A stretch of DNA of 64,000 bases from Clostridia bacterium (GTDB lineage Bacteria > Bacillota > Clostridia > Oscillospirales > CAG-272): positions 11,886-75,885 of the forward strand of contig JAFUNF010000018.1 of assembly GCA_017473085.1 (NCBI GenBank), read 5' to 3'. This document shows, in pieces, positions 3,844 to 55,217 of this stretch. Numbering within the stretch: the first letter of the stretch is position 1; every line of letters begins with the position of its first letter. The translations under genes were made by a program, and so were the position numbers. Below the pieces are notes generated by a model. It ran no database searches. It saw only the letters and a list, made by a program, of their open reading frames with translations, and was not told where the DNA came from.

Positions 3844-3878
3844 AAAATGCTAAAATAACGGCAAAAGCCGATAAAAAA

Positions 3879-3992
3879 CACTTCTCTCATCCGGACTTTA
3901 ACCGTCGGTTTTGGAATTGCACCAAATCTGCCTAAGGGTTAGGCTCGCAGACTGTACTGCCGGTGGGGAGTTGCACCCCGCCCCGAAATATA
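3879..3992 (-). promoter_or_regulatory. FMN riboswitch (RFN element) aptamer
   Basis: The minus strand reads TTCGGGGCGGGGTGCAACTCCCCACCGGCAGTA...GCAGATTTGGTGCAATTCCAAAACCGACGGTTAAAGTCCGGATGAGAGAAG, matching the conserved RFN core segments. Confidence 0.85.
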
Positions 3993-4350
3993 TTAGGAAC
4001 AGTCAGATAGTGGCATAGAACGAAAAGCAGGATATATTCCCTCTTTTCTGCCTGTTCCCTTTATTTACTTGTCTATAATGTAGAGTTTTTCTATTTGTAG
4101 CATTTTAATACCACTTGCTTTTACCAAGAAAAACTCTTTTTATCTGCTTTTCTAATTGCGTTCTCTACTCTACCGTACAAAGTACGCCTACGCGTACGAG
4201 AACACAATTTCTCTACCCCTCCTGATGCCCCTAGATAGAGCTCCTTTAGGGCAATCATAACGTTTACAAAGTAAACTCATAACTCAACCCCGTTGAGCCA
4301 CACTCCCATTTTACCACTCCGTAGCTTATATGTCAATAAAAAAATGGTTG

Positions 4351-6371: not shown

Positions 6372-6476
6372 TGAAATGAAAATTGTTCACGTTTGCGAAG
6401 CAAATATTTCACCCCAAAGGGCTTTCATTTGTCCGAAAGTGAAAATTTCATTGCACTCCTGTTCTTGCAGGAGTGC
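6372..6476. repeat. hairpin-linker array, ATTTCAT flavour
   Basis: Hairpins tttgc-gaa-gcaaa, ccc-aaa-ggg and gcactcctg-ttcttg-caggagtgc, separated by tatttcac / ctttcatt / atttcatt. Confidence 0.6.
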
Positions 6477-21883: not shown

Positions 21884-22013
21884 CAACCGACAGGTTGTAT
21901 ATCATCACGCAAGGCGTGTATATCATCAACCCTTGGTTGTATATCATCACTACCACAGGTAGTGTATATCATCAACCTCTAGGTTGTATATCATCACAAC
22001 GAAGTTGTGTATC
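21884..22013. repeat. hairpin-linker array, TATATCAT flavour (6 hairpins, 5 linkers)
   Basis: caacc-gaca-ggttg, TATATCAT, cacgc-aag-gcgtg, TATATCAT, caacc-ctt-ggttg, TATATCAT, cactacc-aca-ggtagtg, TATATCAT, caacctctaggttg, TATATCAT, cacaac-gaa-gttgtg. Confidence 0.8.
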
Positions 22014-33303: not shown

Positions 33304-33540
33304 GCCTTCCCCCAAGGGAAATGAAATCCACCTGTGGTGGATGAAATCGCTATGCGATGAAATCGTTACACGATGAAATCCTTGCTCTACAAGGATGAAA
33401 AAGCCGACACAGTGTCGGCTTTTTTAGTTTCATTCGACGTTAGGCGAATTTCAAGCACGACGAAGTCGTGTATTTCAAGCTAACTTCAGTTAGCATTTCA
33501 AGTGCGTTTCAACGCACATTTCATTCACCGAAGGTGTAGT
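33301..33540. repeat. mirror-symmetric hairpin-linker array (ATGAAAT half, terminator, ATTTCAW half)
   Basis: Left half: ccacc-tgt-ggtgg, cgc-tat-gcg, cgt-tac-acg and cctt-gctctac-aagg, joined by ATGAAAT. Centre: agccgacac-a-gtgtcggct with A/T runs. Right half: cacgac-gaa-gtcgtg, ctaac-ttca-gttag, tgcg-tttcaa-cgca and cacc-gaa-ggtg, joined by ATTTCAAG or ATTTCAT. Confidence 0.8.
33397..33425. terminator. bidirectional terminator at the centre of the array
   Basis: aaaaagccgacacagtgtcggcttttt. Confidence 0.8.
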
Positions 33541-41162: not shown

Positions 41163-41237
41163 GCTGGAGTAGCACAGTGGTAGTGCAGCTGATTCGTAAT
41201 CAGCAGGTCGTGAGTTCAAATCTCATCTTCAGCTCCA
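41163..41237 (+). tRNA. tRNA-Thr (anticodon CGT)
   Basis: Cloverleaf: acceptor GCTGGAG/CTTCAGC, anticodon stem GCTGA/TCAGC with loop TTCGTAA, T-arm GTGAG-TTCAAAT-CTCAT, encoded CCA. Confidence 0.85.
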
Positions 41238-41240
41238 AAA

Positions 41241-41280
41241 AATACTGCAGAAAAGGATACTTTTTCTGCAGTATTTTTTT
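41241..41280 (+). terminator. rho-independent terminator after the tRNA
   Basis: aatactgcagaaaa-ggatac-tttttctgcagtatt followed by TTTTTTT. Confidence 0.8.
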
Positions 41281-41282
41281 AT

Positions 41283-41466
41283 CCAAACTGCAGGTTTGGT
41301 ATATCATCACGCCTCGGCGTGTATATCATCAGCCCTTTGTGGCTGCATATCATCGCGACTTAGTCGTGCATACCCCACCCTGCTGTTTGATGATATACAA
41401 TGCTTTTCTCGCATTGGTGATATGCAATTCCTTGCAGAATTGATGATATGCAAGGCTGATGCCTTG
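41283..41466. repeat. bipartite hairpin-linker array, TATATCAT flavour (direct half plus inverted half)
   Basis: Left half: ccaaac-tgcag-gtttgg, cacgcc-tc-ggcgtg, cagcc-ctttgt-ggctg and cgcgac-tta-gtcgtg, joined by (T/C)ATATCAT. Right half: caatgc-ttttctc-gcattg, caattc-cttgca-gaattg and caaggc-tgat-gccttg, joined by (G/A)TGATAT(A/G). Confidence 0.8.
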
Positions 41467-41512
41467 ATTTTAATGTTAGAATGTGGTACAATACACCCAA
41501 AGAGGTGATATT

Positions 41513-41860
41513 GTGTCAAAAAACTATTTATTGATATATTCGGAACAACTCGCAACTGAAATAGAATTGATGTGCCAAAATATAAAAGCTCCATCAAATA
41601 CTTTGTTCCAAATACGTAAAAGCTCAAGCAGTGTTTATGCCAATATCCGTGAGGCAAATTATGGTCAAAGTAAAGCAGATATGCTTTCCAAATTTGAAAT
41701 TGCTCTTAAAGAATGCAGCGAAACTGAAGGCTGGTTACAGCTATTGTTCAACACAAATGGTATAGACGAAGAAACATACAAAAGCCACCGAAATCTTTGC
41801 GGACGCATTAGACGAATGTTGATTTCAAGTTGCAAAACGTTAAAGAATATTGGAAAGTAA
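41513..41860 (+). CDS. four-helix-bundle protein (23S rRNA intervening-sequence protein / Avd-like family)
   Basis: About 115 aa with the family-typical helices (IRKSSSSVYANIREANYGQSKADMLSKFEIALKECSETEGWL). GTG 41513 with RBS AGAGGTGA is preferred. Confidence 0.65.
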   Translation: MSKNYLLIYSEQLATEIELMCQNIKAPSNTLFQIRKSSSSVYANIREANYGQSKADMLSKFEIALKECSETEGWLQLLFNTNGIDEETYKSHRNLCGRIRRMLISSCKTLKNIGK

Positions 41861-41920
41861 AAAAACTATTAGCAATTATACTTCTGTCTTGTACGCTCTG
41901 CTTTGAGGTTTTTCAATTAA

Positions 41921-42147
41921 ATCCGTCCGAAACGGGATAAATCCACAAATGTGGATGAAATCACTACGAGAACCCCCTAAAATTCTCCGAATTTTTGGGG
42001 AACCCCTACATGATGAAATCAAGCTTCGCTTGGAGATAAGTAAGACGGATTTGATTTCATTTTTCCAACGGAAAGATTTCATTCGACCCTAGTCGGATTT
42101 CATTACACAAGGTATACTTCGTAATGTGCGTAAGCACAATTTCATTT
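41921..42147. repeat. bipartite hairpin-linker array, ATGAAAT then ATTTCAT flavour
   Basis: Left half: ccac-aaat-gtgg and caagc-ttc-gcttg, with ATGAAAT linkers. Right half: tttcc-aac-ggaaa, tcgac-ccta-gtcgg and tgtgc-gtaa-gcaca, with ATTTCAT(T) linkers. Confidence 0.7.
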
Positions 42148-42149
42148 TG

Positions 42150-42178
42150 TTGACTTTATAGAATTGTTATGATACAAT
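42150..42178 (+). promoter_or_regulatory. sigma-A type promoter for the HD-LRR gene cluster
   Basis: TTGACT, 17 nt, TACAAT. Confidence 0.5.
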
Positions 42179-42267
42179 TATTATAAGATGTTGACATTTT
42201 CAATCCACCACTTGACAGTATAACATATCTTTTGGGCAAAATCAATTAAATTTTGAGGAGTTAAATA

Positions 42268-43791
42268 ATGATTTACACAGAAAAAACAAAAAAGGCGCTT
42301 GCCTTGTGCTTTGAGGCACACAAGAATCAGGTTGACAAAGCAGGTATGCCTTATGTTTTTCACCCCTTTCATTTGGCTGAGCAAATGAAAACAGAGGAAG
42401 AAACCATAGTTGCTCTTTTGCACGACGTGGTTGAGGACACGGACTACACGCTTGCAGATTTAGAAAAAATGGGCTTTGGAGTGTCTGTAATTGAAGCATT
42501 AAAGCTCCTTACTCACGACACCTCGGTTGATTATTTTGACTACGTTAAAGCGATTTCCCAAAACGAAATAGCAAGGGCCGTTAAAATTGCCGACCTTACC
42601 CACAACTCTACCCTTGAAAGATTTGACTACAAGGACATTACCCCTTGGGACATAGAAAGACAGAAAAAATATTTCAAGGCGCTTGAAATATTAGGCGAGG
42701 TACCATACAAAAACAAGTATATGCTTTGTATCTGTTGTGGTGCTACCACCTTTAACAAGGACTACGTAGGTGCATTTGACACTTGCCCTATCTGTGGCTT
42801 TAATGACGAGGATTTGGTTACTAAGGACATAACCCTTGAGGGTGCACGACAACATTTTATAGAAAGCAAAAAAATAATAAAATATGTATTGCCACTGGGC
42901 TTAAGACGAGAAAAAATGACAAATTTAAAATACGAAAGAAAGCCTTCTAAAAATGAAATTACAATAACAGGGCTTTCTGACAAAAATGTAACCGAGGTTG
43001 TTATACCTGATGAAATTGACGGAAGCAAGGTTACAGAAATAGGCGACTCTGCCTTTTGGGATTGTGAGGAGCTTACAAGCGTTATAATTCCAAAGGGTGT
43101 AACCACAATAGGTGTCTCCGCCTTTTCAGGTTGCAATGAGCTTAGAAGCATTATAATTCCAGATAGTGTAACCACAATTGGCGCCTTTGCTTTTTTCAAC
43201 TGCACAAGGCTTAAAAATATTGAATTTCCAAATAGTATAGCTACCATAGGACGTTCCGCCTTTATGTATTGTAAAGGACTCACAAGTGTTACAATTCCAA
43301 ACAGTGTATCGAAAATAGAGACAAACATCTTTTCTGGTTGTACAGGACTTACAAGTGTTGTAATTCCAAACAGTGTAACTGCAATAGGCTCCTCCGCTTT
43401 TCATGGTTGCACAGGTCTTAAAATCATTGTGATTCCAAAAGGTGTAACTGCAATAGGTTCCTCTGCCTTTTGGGGTTGCACGTCACTTACAAATATTACA
43501 ATTCCAAACAGCGTTACGAAAATAGGTTTGAGTGCCTTTTTCAATTGCACGTCACTTACAAATATTACAATTCCAAACAGCGTTACGAAAATAGGTTTGA
43601 GTGCCTTTTTCAATTGCACGTCACTTACAAATATTACAATTCCAAACAGCGTTACAAAGATGGACAGCCATGTTTTCTTGAAATGTGATAATCTTACAAT
43701 TTACGCACAAGCAAATTCCAAGCCACGTGGTTGGGATTCCAATTGGAATCCAGACAACCGACCTGTTGTATGGGGTCACAATGGTCAATAA
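42268..43791 (+). CDS. fusion protein: HD-domain (RelA/SpoT-type small alarmone hydrolase-like), CPCC zinc ribbon and BspA-type LRR
   Basis: N-terminal HKNQVDKAGMPYVFHPFHLAE...LLHDVVEDT (HD_4 type). Middle CICCGATTF...CPICGFNDED. C-terminal 23-aa LRR_5 units. No signal peptide. RBS GAGGAG. Confidence 0.75.
   Translation: MIYTEKTKKALALCFEAHKNQVDKAGMPYVFHPFHLAEQMKTEEETIVALLHDVVEDTDYTLADLEKMGFGVSVIEALKLLTHDTSVDYFDYVKAISQNEIARAVKIADLTHNSTLERFDYKDITPWDIERQKKYFKALEILGEVPYKNKYMLCICCGATTFNKDYVGAFDTCPICGFNDEDLVTKDITLEGARQHFIESKKIIKYVLPLGLRREKMTNLKYERKPSKNEITITGLSDKNVTEVVIPDEIDGSKVTEIGDSAFWDCEELTSVIIPKGVTTIGVSAFSGCNELRSIIIPDSVTTIGAFAFFNCTRLKNIEFPNSIATIGRSAFMYCKGLTSVTIPNSVSKIETNIFSGCTGLTSVVIPNSVTAIGSSAFHGCTGLKIIVIPKGVTAIGSSAFWGCTSLTNITIPNSVTKIGLSAFFNCTSLTNITIPNSVTKIGLSAFFNCTSLTNITIPNSVTKMDSHVFLKCDNLTIYAQANSKPRGWDSNWNPDNRPVVWGHNGQ
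43477..43655 (+). repeat. perfect 69-bp tandem repeat (2.6 copies) inside the LRR coding region
   Basis: The unit tgcacgtcacttacaaatattacaattccaaacagcgttacgaaaataggtttgagtgcctttttcaat starts at 43477, 43546 and 43615. It equals one 23-aa LRR unit. Confidence 0.9.
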
Positions 43792-43865
43792 GAAGCACAA
43801 GGTAAAAAAATGCTCTTTACAAAAGCCTATGAATACAATACATAACTAAATCTAAAGGAGAAAAA

Positions 43866-44735
43866 ATGACAGATTTAATATACGAAATCGATACTTCAAA
43901 ATACGAAATTAAAATAACGGGAGTTTCCGATAAAAGTAAAAAGGAACTCGTTATTCCTGATGAAATAGACGGAATGGCTGTTACGGAAATAAGCAAAAGT
44001 GCATTTGAGAATTACGAGGAGCTTACAAGCGTGACAATTCCAAGCAGTGTAACCAGCATCGATTCCTATACCTTTGTCACTTGCAAAAAGCTTTCGGCTA
44101 TTATTGTTAAAGAAAACAATAGGACGTATAAATCTATTGACGGAAACTTGTATTCAAAGGATGGAAAAACTCTTATTCGATATGCCATAGGCAAAAAGGA
44201 CACCTCGTTTAAAATTCCAAACGACGTAACTGCATTAGCCCATTTCGCCTTTGCCAATTGCGCAAACCTTAAAAGTATTACAATGCCAAACAGTATAACC
44301 TCAATAGGTGCGTATGCCTTTTCACGTTGCACAGGGATTTCACGCATTGTTGTGCCAAGAGGTGTAACCACAATAGGCAAGCTTGCCTTTGACCACTTCA
44401 TAGGACTTGAAAGTGTTAAAATTCCAAGTAGTGTAACCTGCATCGATCACTTTGCCTTTGCCAATTGCCCAAGCCTTAAAAGTGTTAATATTCCAAGGAG
44501 CATAACCAATATCGGACACTTTGCCTTTATCCATTGCTTAAGCCTTAAAAACGTTACAATTCCAAAGAGTGTAACCAGCATCGGCAAAGAGACCTTTAAG
44601 GGCTGCACAAGTCTTACAATCCACGCACAAGTAAAATCTAAGCCTGACGGTTGGATTCCCAATTGGAATCCAGCCAATAGACCTGTCGTGTGGGGTTACA
44701 AAAAATGGTTCGGTCAAGGAAAGAATACAAAGTAA
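43866..44735 (+). CDS. BspA-type LRR protein, no signal peptide
   Basis: 289 aa of LRR_5 units. The N-terminus MTDLIYEIDTSKYEIKITG is paralogous to the internal M215 region of the preceding gene. RBS AAAGGAG. Confidence 0.75.
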   Translation: MTDLIYEIDTSKYEIKITGVSDKSKKELVIPDEIDGMAVTEISKSAFENYEELTSVTIPSSVTSIDSYTFVTCKKLSAIIVKENNRTYKSIDGNLYSKDGKTLIRYAIGKKDTSFKIPNDVTALAHFAFANCANLKSITMPNSITSIGAYAFSRCTGISRIVVPRGVTTIGKLAFDHFIGLESVKIPSSVTCIDHFAFANCPSLKSVNIPRSITNIGHFAFIHCLSLKNVTIPKSVTSIGKETFKGCTSLTIHAQVKSKPDGWIPNWNPANRPVVWGYKKWFGQGKNTK

Positions 44736-44736
44736 A

Positions 44737-45603
44737 ATGATAAATTTAAAATATGAAAAAAATCCTTCTAAAAATGAAATTACAATAACAGGACTTTCCT
44801 ACAAAAATGTAACCGAGGTTGTTATTCCTGCCGAAATTGACGGAATGGCAGTTACAGAAATAGGCGACTGTGCATTTTTGGATTGTGAGAAGCTTACGAG
44901 TGTTATAATTCCTAAGGGTGTAACCCACATTGGCAAGGATGCATTTTCGGGCTGTTCCTCCCTTACAAGCATCACACTTCCAGAGGGTGTAACAGCAATT
45001 GGCGAGTGTGCCTTTTGGCATTGTACAAGGCTTAAAAGCATTACTATTCCAAGCACAGTAACCTCAATTGGCGACTATGCCTTTCCCGATTGCGAGGAGC
45101 TTACAAGTATTATAATTCCTAATGGTGTAACAGCAATTGGCGAGTGTTGCTTTTCTGGTTGTATAAGCCTAAAAAGTGTAACAATTCCAAGCACTGTAAC
45201 CACAATTGGCGACTGTGCATTTGCAGGCTGTGAGGAGCTTACAAGCGTTACAATTCCCAAGAGTGTAACCACCATTGGTGCAAGTGCCTTTAGGAATTGT
45301 CAAGGGCTTAGAAGCATTGCATTTCCAGAGAGTGTAACCCACATTGGCAAGGAAGCCTTTTACGATTGCATATCGCTTACAAGTATAGTAATTCCAAAGG
45401 GTGTTGATACCTTAAATAATGGTGTCTTTTCTTGGTGCACACGTCTTACAAGCGTCACTATTCCAGAGGGCGTTACCACCATTGACAAGTGTGCCTTTTA
45501 TGGTTGTACCTCTCTTAAATGCGTCACAATACCAAGGAGTGTAACAACAATTGGCGAGCGTGCATTTTCCGATTGCACAATTATTGCATACAACAAAAAA
45601 TAG
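44737..45603 (+). CDS. BspA-type LRR protein, no signal peptide
   Basis: 288 aa of LRR_5 units. The N-terminus MINLKYEKNPSKNEITITG is nearly identical to the internal MTNLKYERKPSKNEITITG of the 42268 gene. Confidence 0.75.
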   Translation: MINLKYEKNPSKNEITITGLSYKNVTEVVIPAEIDGMAVTEIGDCAFLDCEKLTSVIIPKGVTHIGKDAFSGCSSLTSITLPEGVTAIGECAFWHCTRLKSITIPSTVTSIGDYAFPDCEELTSIIIPNGVTAIGECCFSGCISLKSVTIPSTVTTIGDCAFAGCEELTSVTIPKSVTTIGASAFRNCQGLRSIAFPESVTHIGKEAFYDCISLTSIVIPKGVDTLNNGVFSWCTRLTSVTIPEGVTTIDKCAFYGCTSLKCVTIPRSVTTIGERAFSDCTIIAYNKK

Positions 45604-55116: not shown

Positions 55117-55217
55117 CCTGCGAAGCAGGATTTCATCGTGAAAGCGATTTCATTCACCAAAGGTGGATTTCATCCGTCAAAGACGGATTTCATTGCGTTG
55201 TGACTTTGTCACAACGC
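55117..55217. repeat. hairpin-linker array, ATTTCAT flavour (5 hairpins)
   Basis: cctgc-gaa-gcagg, ATTTCAT, cgt-gaaa-gcg, ATTTCAT, tcacc-aaa-ggtgg, ATTTCAT, ccgtc-aaa-gacgg, ATTTCATT, gcgttgtgac-ttt-gtcacaacgc. Confidence 0.8.

Follow-up and report, generated by a model that had tools for sequence, protein, structure and literature searches.

A comb of short hairpins on a fixed linker, carried in a cassette behind tRNA and tmRNA genes of gut Clostridia

Several kinds of folded sequence are known from bacteria with which the element described here, a row or comb of short hairpins between genes of a gut bacterium, can be compared. Repetitive extragenic palindromes (REP), with the bacterial interspersed mosaic elements (BIME) that they form, are dispersed hairpin repeats that lie after genes and between operons, in arrays with opposed units; they are thought to be read as folded single strands by a protein, and they can affect termination and mRNA stability. 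The attC sites of integrons combine a conserved structure with a variable sequence, strand choice being encoded by asymmetry, while the Correia, BOX, RUP and ERIC elements are folded intergenic sequences of about 150-200 nt that alter the transcription of their neighbors and show presence/absence differences. Clusters of hairpins have been proposed as transcription terminators (PMC8355165), and, at the smallest scale, a 2026 review describes GCGNAGC and GCGNNAGC as ‘mini-hairpin DNA’ motifs, far stabler as DNA than as RNA and poor binders of single-stranded DNA-binding protein (SSB), their sites including the phage G4 priming site, ssiA of RSF1010 (CCGAAGG) and the phage N4 promoters, whose active form is an extruded hairpin of five base pairs with a loop of three nucleotides (PMC13037366). 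We have analyzed a stretch of 64,000 nt from a Clostridia bacterium (contig JAFUNF010000018.1, hereafter the window), in which the comb occupies positions 41283-41466, behind a tRNA-Thr gene. It is part of a modular cassette, gained at the ends of stable-RNA genes, in which local hairpins and one long-range helix are selected, the linker is fixed and unpaired, and each unit has its own polarity; window 41238-41902 is one laterally inserted copy of this dispersed cassette, which is widespread in gut Clostridia and apparently undescribed.

Free stems, a fixed linker and a long-range helix

A preliminary description of the window had recognized, in 41283-41466, four hairpins with YATATCAT linkers followed by three with the reverse-complement linkers, directly after the tRNA-Thr terminator. 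This holds on reading the sequence, with seven hairpins (H1 to H7) and six linkers in two inverted halves that start two bases past the T-run of the terminator. Overlooked were a helix between H1 and a distant segment (anti-H1), a promoter at H7, a linked gene for a four-helix-bundle (4HB) protein, and the status of the whole block as an insertion. The features are as follows.

41163-41237 (+): tRNA-Thr(CGT), by ARAGORN and Rfam; context and probable target, outside the insert
41238-41280 (both strands): bidirectional intrinsic terminator of A-run, 12-13 bp stem and T-run, by sequence and fold
41243-41902 (+): inserted block of terminator, array, promoter, 4HB gene and 42-nt tail, by blastn against two relatives (L206, L207; L numbers denote loci)
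41283-41299 (+): H1, CCAAAC-tgcag-GTTTGG; its 5' arm and loop, 41284-41294, are also complementary to 41379-41389
41300-41307 (+): linker 1, TATATCAT
41308-41321 (+): H2, CACGC-ctcg-GCGTG
41322-41329 (+): linker 2, TATATCAT
41330-41345 (+): H3, CAGCC-ctttgt-GGCTG
41346-41353 (+): linker 3, CATATCAT
41354-41368 (+): H4, CGCGAC-tta-GTCGTG
41300-41373 (+): left comb, of three linkers, H2 to H4 and a truncated linker CATAC; + is the folding strand by loop and wobble polarity
41369-41389: center, 21 nt, holding the anti-H1 segment CCTGCTGTTTG at 41379-41389
41390-41397 (-): linker 4, ATGATATA
41398-41416 (-): H5
41417-41424 (-): linker 5, GTGATATG
41425-41442 (-): H6
41443-41450 (-): linker 6, ATGATATG
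41451-41466 (-): H7, whose 3' end supplies the promoter -35
41390-41466 (-): right comb, of linkers 4 to 6 and H5 to H7, with G..A loops on the - strand
41464-41492 (+): sigma-70-type promoter, by promoter scan; -35 TTGATT at 41464-41469 (3' end of H7), 17-nt spacer, -10 TACAAT at 41487-41492
41513-41860 (+): 4HB gene, 115 aa, GTG start; PF05635 E 6.6e-19, TIGR02436 E 3.4e-21
21884-22013 (+): sister array of the same linker family, one-way, with 6 hairpins and 5 linkers, between the DUF1292 stop codon and the ygiQ start

The repetition of the linker is far beyond chance. For TATATCAT, 1.9 copies are expected in the window and 10 are present, the largest number in any shuffle being 5, and YATATCAYC occurs 11 times against 0.9 expected, six times in the 41283-41466 array, five times at 21898-21995 and nowhere else. 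Because the CA..TG closing pairs of the hairpins are conserved too, the conserved unit is really one of 12 nt, TG-TATATCAT-CA. The sister array, whose flanking genes DUF1292 and ygiQ are both on the - strand, shares none of its stems with 41283-41466, and the earlier observation that the linker is what the two loci have in common extends to at least 119 loci and 276 distinct hairpins.

A genome-wide pattern search thus makes the array a member of a family, and no local curiosity. The GTDB collection, one genome per species (596 Gb), was scanned for the exact pattern of two adjacent forward linkers, with about one match expected by chance by our own estimate (22 fixed bases in 596 Gb), and the pattern was found at 119 genome loci at least. 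The pattern was exact and the loci are those listed, so that both the number of copies and the spread over taxa are minimum values. Among the matches listed, all carriers are uncultured Clostridia of animal and human guts, labeled mostly as Acutalibacteraceae, Oscillospiraceae, ‘Eubacteriales’ or ‘Clostridia bacterium’, along with a few metagenome-assembled genomes (MAGs) labeled Christensenella; the relatives are MAGs throughout. Only one of 2.9 million viral contigs has the pattern, and a phage origin is rejected on this ground. When the loci were re-scanned with two mismatches allowed per 12-mer, 137 linker clusters resulted, of which 53 have exactly three forward and then three reverse linkers, 94 are convergent with at least four linkers, and none has reverse linkers followed by forward ones. 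The layout of two inverted halves is therefore not only real in the window but also the dominant form, and, since the search pattern required no second half, the convergent 3+3 layout is a property of the family. One-way arrays of 3-9 units also occur, a single locus, L045, combines 12 forward with 4 reverse linkers, and the arrays are intergenic wherever inspected. As a control, 80 loci around KsgA homologues from a metagenome scan, all of them distant (at most 47% identity; 376 kb), yielded only three small clusters.

The full element is asymmetric. It runs from the tRNA CCA end through the A-run/hairpin/T-run terminator and ATCCA to H1, then through three TATATCAT linkers with H2 to H4, TGYAT as a truncated linker and a few A/T bases as spacer to the 11-nt anti-H1 segment, which is followed by three ATGATATA linkers with H5 to H7 and by TTGATTT; the third forward linker is TATCTCAT in half of the copies. 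The 481 hairpins that stand between like-oriented linkers represent 276 distinct sequences, and these, when paired from the outside in, give 1709 Watson-Crick pairs, 35 G-T or A-C pairs and 18 mismatches, i.e., 97% Watson-Crick, with closing pairs that covary (for example, CA..TG to CC..GG or CG..CG). RNAalifold on 47 aligned elements predicts H1, H3, H5, H6 and H7, with double compensatory changes at 20 of 44 pairs. The stems are GC-rich and of 5-7 bp. Hairpin length varies from 11 to 30 nt, for which reason the linkers are out of helical phase on duplex DNA, while in each of the six linkers of the 49 six-linker elements the 12-mer varies little or not at all at positions 2, 4, 5 and 7-11. 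To judge from these sequence comparisons, the structure is selected, the stem sequence is free and the linker is nearly invariant.

The preliminary description had further suggested that the two halves could pair through their linkers into a long palindrome decorated with side hairpins. Folding programs do draw linker-linker pairs, the linkers being fixed reverse complements of one another, but comparison across the family gives such pairs no support. Position 6 of the third linker is C in 25 of the 49 elements, with T at the would-be partner in the fourth linker in 24 of them and G in one, and position 3 of the first linker is C in 10 elements, always opposite A. No covariation was found for any partner assignment among the six linkers of these 49 elements, no assignment scores best, and RNAalifold finds zero pairs with both sides changed in any linker-linker helix. 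With mismatches tolerated and linker changes never compensated, the linker-linker pairing is rejected.

What does pair at long range is H1. Its 5' arm and loop (CAAACTGCAGG, 41284-41294) pair at 10 of 11 positions with CCTGCTGTTTG at 41379-41389, the segment that abuts the first reverse linker. Exact complementarity of at least 8 nt at this position is found in 58 of 77 elements, mismatched control pairings giving mostly 3-5 nt, and there are at least seven covarying sequence types, such as AGCCGACAG/CTGTCGGCT, TTGCGAAAGC/GCTTTCGCAA, TTACGGAGT/ACTCCGTAA and AGTCGCAGA/TCTGCGACT. The 38 distinct pairs of this 11-bp helix hold 409 Watson-Crick, 3 G-T and 4 A-C pairs and 11 mismatches, and two paralogues on a single contig (L026) have compensated differences in H1 and anti-H1. 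Either the left comb is enclosed by this helix, or the helix and the H1 hairpin are alternative folds.

The family matches nothing in Rfam, where only an FMN riboswitch and the tRNA pass the gathering threshold in the window and matches at E up to 10 are at chance level, so that any known Rfam RNA family is rejected. Literature searches by motif, by hairpin arrays near tRNA genes, by PF05635 function and by tRNA-linked repeats, among 8.3 million papers and preprints, retrieved no description of it, and none of the sporulation-sigma, Fur-box, DnaA-trio, dif, K-turn/box C or pC194-type nick sites fits the full 12-mer.

A cassette at the ends of stable-RNA genes

The module in the window starts directly past the CCA end of tRNA-Thr(CGT). 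A tRNA end lies 51-61 nt (in a few cases up to 110 nt) before the first linker in 51 of the 94 convergent elements, always on the H1 side and always pointing at the element, with 25 anticodons represented, and at two loci reached from the protein side (L121 and L211) the module directly follows tmRNA. Its first hairpin is a textbook bidirectional terminator, and an A-run, a hairpin and a T-run with ATCC stand on the left of 68 of 76 oriented elements. The terminator hairpins belong to few sequence families, which recur behind different tRNAs; that of the window is found nearly unchanged behind tmRNA (L121) and behind tRNA-Glu (L082). Because the same terminator recurs behind different stable-RNA genes, it is part of the repeated unit, whose start is the CCA end. 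On the other side, the promoter layout of the window is found in 28 of 73 elements, with a 17-nt spacer in 27 and TATAAT in 17, and 45 of the 73 have no recognizable promoter. The hairpins of the comb are followed merely by UAUAUCAU; H7 plus ATTTTAAT passes a simple terminator scan. Such a cassette would end the tRNA transcription unit in both directions and restart transcription of the next gene, as by-products for the host.

That the block is an insertion is seen from the orthologous regions downstream of tRNA-Thr. Close relatives were found by protein search with KsgA and by contig look-ups, and five of them, with KsgA identities of 93% (L206), 85% (L207), 74%, 72% and 70%, all keep the KsgA/DUF554 neighborhood, with tRNA-Thr(CGT) beside KsgA, the first four keeping also a GH94 gene; the array and the 4HB gene are absent in all five contigs. 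By blastn, window 40202-41242 matches L206 at 88%, and the next match is 41903-41926, with 24 nt identical. Between the matches, with junctions at 41242/41243 and 41902/41903, are 660 nt in the window versus 17 nt in L206. As the relatives have retained the synteny but have neither array nor 4HB gene, 41243-41902 is a 660-nt insertion. The 17 nt of L206 correspond to the resident terminator's 5' arm and loop, missing in the window, where its 3' arm, TTGAGGTTTTT, remains without a partner at 41903. An insertion of the integrase type was considered and rejected, as no displaced tRNA-Thr fragment is present in the 64 kb, and no integrase or transposase recurs near the arrays. At the site of the 72% relative (L209) that is orthologous to window ~41281, the exact array junction, a lone linker-like 12-mer, AGTATATCATAA, without hairpins, directly follows the T-run of the tRNA-Thr terminator and may be a seed or a scar.

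The gene that follows the promoter encodes a protein scoring 68.5 bits for PF05635 (cut-off 33.8) and 75.5 bits for TIGR02436 (cut-off 24), the closest solved structure being PDB 2RLD (E 2e-17), an uncharacterized protein with five chains in the entry. It corresponds to the program-listed open reading frame (ORF) 41483-41860, real from the GTG at 41513. Of 77 oriented elements, 12 (about 15%) have a 4HB gene behind the comb, truncated or with in-frame stops in four of them, and 4HB is the only ORF family that recurs near the arrays (15 loci, among ORFs within 1.5 kb of about 120 loci). From the protein side the linkage is strict, with terminator, comb and promoter directly upstream in 7 of 7 independent loci (L121, L211 with two tandem copies, L212, L215, L216, L217/218). 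Homology between loci stops at the 4HB stop codon, and the ORFs downstream, which are unrelated to one another, are rejected as a conserved partner. In metatranscriptome contigs, unstranded and from related organisms, 4HB homologues are expressed, the contigs starting near the predicted promoter. The family comprises 3414 clusters at E <= 1e-5, the best 120 being 83-96% identical. Many members carry annotated lengths of 150-160 aa, the gene callers having run on into the comb, and many close homologues are listed at 141-177 aa and not at ~115 aa (clusters P0003, P0004, P0007, P0010 and others), which fits starts placed within the comb, a systematic mis-annotation. The comb thus creates N-terminally extended gene calls as well as false ORFs: the three overlapping ORFs in the window (41177-41443, 41296-41508, 41307-41657) are indeed artefacts, as had been proposed, since they have no Pfam match and lie on DNA missing from close relatives. 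As most close 4HB homologues are on contigs under 2 kb, the comb probably breaks metagenome assemblies, too.

Cassettes also differ among themselves. Loci L015 and L040 are orthologous, with the same tRNA-Arg(CCG), the same downstream gene and a comb in both, and only L015 has the promoter and the 4HB gene, the difference starting at TTGATTT. By our own count, the window and L121 agree at 41 of 43 positions in the terminator and at ~64 of 68 in the promoter and leader, while H2 to H7 differ in loops, at compensated stem positions, or entirely. The number of units per array ranges from 2 to 16, with duplicated two-unit blocks inside some arrays (L022, L036, L049, L114). With the same 12-mer recurring every 20-30 nt, the arrays readily lend themselves to slippage and gene conversion, which probably shuffle units between loci.

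A number of further observations concern the surroundings of the cassettes. At eight loci (L006, L008, L018, L026, L027, L077, L087, L119), a complete tRNA and a terminator are followed, after 130-200 nt of other sequence, by another copy of the tRNA 3' end. This copy begins in the T-loop and is on the left side of the module, with terminator and comb following; the duplication looks like the att-site duplication of a very small or decayed insertion into the tRNA gene. Locus L211 (1250-2920) holds two complete modules of terminator, comb, promoter, 4HB gene and small ORF in tandem behind tmRNA, the second following a repeated motif, ACTACTTTTAGTCGCTCT, that stands in for the terminator in L076. 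The second most frequent neighbor of arrays, a protein of ~306 aa in 7 loci (e.g., L031 1420-2337, - strand) whose N-terminus resembles an XRE-type helix-turn-helix by eye, probably reflects shared synteny. Beside the cassette in the window is a second variable block (42302-45590), made of the LRR (BspA-type) part of an HD-domain gene and two LRR genes, which is without an equivalent in L206; the match to the HD-domain gene is longer in L207, where no match was found for the two LRR genes. The FMN riboswitch (110 bits; 3875-3994, - strand) is unrelated to the array.

The same architecture is found with other linkers. A second hairpin/linker family in the window, with linker GATGAAATC and its reverse GATTTCAT, is present at 33310-33530, as two opposed halves around a bidirectional terminator between convergent genes, at 55129-55195, where it is intercistronic, and at 41927-42194, a copy that is missing in L206 and much shorter in L207 and whose region ~42050-42103 has a depth of 890 versus ~57 in the source metagenome, i.e., is highly multi-copy; further copies are possibly present at 6380-6460 and 36387. 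A third linker family, GTGATGT / ACATCAC, forms two opposed halves of short hairpins at ~5800-6050 of L112, between a tRNA-Tyr terminator and a TATATCAT element, and the comb architecture therefore exists in several linker ‘dialects’.

Folding strand and possible roles of the comb

The loops of the hairpins indicate, by their sequences, that it is preferably the TATATCAT strand that folds, and this is a different strand in each half. C-GNA-G loops number 68 on this strand versus 11 on the opposite one, and C-GNNA-G loops 47 versus 14, triloops making up 130 of 216 short loops. In the left half the G..A loops, and G-T more than A-C, are on the + strand, in the right half on the - strand; the polarity flips between the halves because the bias belongs to each unit. 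Wherever the direction of transcription is clear (array 21884-22013, and the GATGAAATC family in 3' UTRs), the G..A-loop strand is the template strand and not the mRNA strand. The CCGAAGG hairpin of RSF1010 ssiA occurs in family arrays as well. With respect to neighboring genes, for which the calls are crude, one-way arrays show a weak bias, 12 versus 6, to positions after a co-oriented gene.

We tentatively favor, at a probability of roughly 0.4, a reading of the comb as DNA, folded when single-stranded or extruded by supercoiling, that serves as a docking site for a sequence-specific trans-acting protein. The comb would act neither as a duplex operator nor as a single giant palindrome. Instead, the TATATCAT-reading strand of each half would fold into very stable G..A-loop mini-hairpins, which would hold the AT-rich linkers open and side by side, whatever the sequence or length of the stems, and the exposed linkers would be sites for docking, perhaps for cleavage, by a hypothetical protein that would maintain or spread the family. 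Owing to the inversion, the active strand would be available in one half or the other, irrespective of which strand becomes single. The H1/anti-H1 helix would close the left comb into a loop or would alternate with H1.

Several observations weigh against a role as folded DNA. Some one-way arrays lie inside operons, just upstream of a ribosome-binding site (L022, L099 and window 21884-22013), and these must therefore be transcribed; metatranscriptome contigs, although unstranded, do hold traces or pieces of arrays. G..A loops of the GNRA type are good in RNA as well. The scarcity of G-U pairs in the stems is uninformative, G-U being at ~2% on either strand in the adjacent terminators; we dropped it as a sign of DNA because these terminators, certainly acting in RNA, are equally G-U-poor, and the H1/anti-H1 helix is without strand bias (3 GT versus 4 AC). 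By GC skew, the G..A-loop strand of array 21884-22013 is on the leading-strand template, a misfit with a simple lagging-strand-template model. No recombinase, transposase, integrase, HUH enzyme or reverse transcriptase recurs within 1.5 kb of the arrays at ~120 loci, no target-site duplication is present at the window junctions, and no second tRNA-Thr 3' end, with up to 3 mismatches, is found in the 64 kb.

The main rival reading is that the element works in RNA, like REP/BIME in mRNA, as a fail-safe terminator, a barrier to 3'-exonucleases or a processing site, its AU-rich linker being bound or cut by an RNA-binding protein or an RNase and the opposed halves serving transcripts from either side. 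Arrays adjoin stop codons, ribosome-binding sites and terminators (the operon arrays just named, and the GATGAAATC arrays at 33310-33530 and 55129-55195); in the TATATCAT orientation a unit is a GC hairpin followed by UAUAU, the polarity with which each half of a composite meets incoming transcription; H7 plus ATTTTAAT scores as terminator-like; hairpin clusters have a proposed role in termination (PMC8355165); array pieces occur in the metatranscriptome contigs; and a covarying 11-bp helix between segments ~90 nt apart needs one single strand across the left half. Against this, the composite sits between a strong bidirectional terminator and an outward promoter and should be poorly transcribed, the RNA contigs of 4HB homologues begin at the promoter and not inside the array, the stabilizing loops are on the template strand wherever gene direction is known, the dominant triloops suit DNA better than RNA (PMC13037366), and Rfam offers no match even at E = 10. 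An RNA-level role is thus possible, if on the doubtful side. A conventional alternative is that the linkers act in duplex DNA, as an array of 12-bp TGATGATATACA sites for a transcription factor or nucleoid protein, possibly 4HB itself, that controls the adjacent promoter or blocks RNA polymerase. The 3+3 inverted sites directly upstream of a promoter whose -35 overlaps the last unit, the array always preceding the 4HB gene, as in autoregulated genes, and a linker conserved across bacterial families would all fit. However, palindromic spacers with covarying stems and strand-biased loops are left unexplained, the spacing of sites varies by more than one helical turn, ~80% of the arrays have no 4HB gene and 45 of 73 no recognizable promoter, and arrays are also found between convergent genes and inside operons, so we regard such an operator as quite unlikely.

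The arrays could also be a passive by-product, i.e., tandem duplications of a selfish or neutral kind, propagated through the identical linkers by slippage and gene conversion, with no function beyond the terminator and promoter that they carry. Unit numbers of 2-16, the duplicated two-unit blocks (L022, L036, L049, L114), the hairpins differing between the window and L121 much more than the flanking terminator and promoter, and the GATGAAATC-family arrays varying in length between close relatives are what such a process would leave, but neutrality would not preserve stems that are 97% Watson-Crick over 276 sequences or a linker nearly invariant across family-level divergence, and the covarying long-range helix, the fixed 3+3 layout and the strand-biased loops have no explanation in these terms, making a purely passive origin very unlikely. 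Finally, the whole 184 nt could be one composite palindrome or cruciform formed by linker-linker pairing, with the side hairpins attached. The linkers are reverse complements, both single-sequence and alignment folds draw the pairs, and the minimum free energy (MFE) of the array, terminator included, is -87.6 kcal/mol with z = -7.1. On the other side are the uncompensated linkers described above, for which no partner assignment outscores another, and one-way arrays of 3-9 units, which are common; moreover, a purely structural helix does not predict a sequence fixed across species. We consider the composite palindrome highly improbable. Overall, the duplex operator, the passive repeat and the giant palindrome explain less than do the models of folded single-stranded DNA and of RNA.

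A bolder proposal is that the comb and the PF05635 gene together are a new type of mobile element, one for which the 3' ends of stable-RNA genes are the homing target, a folded single-strand site replacing terminal repeats, with comb-only copies as non-autonomous relics and with the PF05635 genes in 23S rRNA intervening sequences, for long unexplained, as part of the same mobility system. This we think unlikely. Were recombination to take place at the comb, it would represent a novel route for gene insertion at tRNA loci.

Comparison with known systems

Whatever its mechanism, the cassette carries a terminator and a promoter, and it thereby rewires transcription at tRNA/tmRNA loci in many abundant uncultured gut Clostridia. 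The protein family to which its gene belongs, PF05635/TIGR02436, is also that of 23S rRNA intervening sequences and of Avd of diversity-generating retroelements, and it gains here a second, testable genomic partner. As in the intervening sequences, a 4HB gene is tied to a structured insertion at a stable-RNA gene, but the insertion is located after a tRNA or tmRNA gene and not inside it, and the hairpin comb has no described counterpart in either the intervening sequences or the retroelements. No reverse transcriptase is among the ORFs recurring within 1.5 kb of the arrays; the ORFs of the window were partly profiled, with no template/variable repeat search made.

The individual hairpins resemble the mini-hairpin DNA sites in having short GC stems, C-G closure and GNA or GNNA loops, and they share with them CCGAAGG, GCGAAGC and GCGAAAGC; the sites in phage G4, RSF1010 ssiA and phage N4 act on one strand after extrusion or exposure (PMC13037366). 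They are, however, single sites in phage and plasmid origins and promoters, while the family forms chromosomal rows of 3-12 with a fixed linker. To our knowledge, no primase or phage polymerase has been linked to the family arrays.

Some classes of repeat can be set aside. A clustered regularly interspaced short palindromic repeat (CRISPR) array is rejected, the repeat here being 8-12 nt and the spacers palindromes of 11-30 nt, versus repeats of ~23-47 nt and unique non-palindromic spacers. A miniature inverted-repeat transposable element (MITE) or transposon of the insertion sequence (IS) type is rejected because there is no duplication at the junctions, 17 nt of the old terminator are gone, and copies differ throughout the stems. 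The family is like Correia, BOX, RUP and ERIC elements in the traits named at the outset, but these have near-identical copies, terminal inverted repeats and target duplications, while in the present family conservation is limited to the linkers, H1/anti-H1 and the ends, and no target duplication is seen at the window junctions.

The likeness is closer to attC and to REP/BIME. Like integron sites, the arrays conserve structure over sequence and encode the choice of strand by asymmetry, and like integron cassettes, array and 4HB gene form a small mobile gene unit that is present or absent at orthologous loci (L015 versus L040; window versus L206). There is, however, no integrase near the arrays and no attI, the target is a tRNA gene end, the 4HB gene has its own promoter, and the site is a row of mini-hairpins and not one long bulged hairpin. 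No attC core boxes were seen on reading the arrays, no dedicated scan having been made. With no integrase recurring near the arrays, a gene with its own promoter and a multi-hairpin comb, an integron cassette is rejected. With REP/BIME the family shares multi-copy, opposed extragenic units (at least 119 loci, 94 clusters with convergent halves), but not the conserved stems, since the two arrays of the window have none in common and 276 of the 481 hairpins are distinct. While REP conserves the palindrome and varies the linkers, the family here fixes a linker of 8-12 nt and frees the stems, its hairpins are much shorter, and the placement at tRNA/tmRNA 3' ends, the built-in terminator and promoter and the linked 4HB gene are without a REP counterpart; no RAYT or transposase-like ORF recurs within 1.5 kb of the arrays at ~120 loci.

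In conclusion, the comb would seem to work most like REP/BIME or attC, where shape is read and sequence is free, while failing the defining features of both. A fixed linker with free stems inverts the usual logic of bacterial palindromic repeats and makes the family a clean natural system in which to study the reading of shape plus sequence in DNA or RNA. It is this inverted conservation, along with the targeting of tRNA/tmRNA ends, a terminator and a promoter of its own, and a 4HB subfamily strictly linked to it, that is unusual among the systems considered here.

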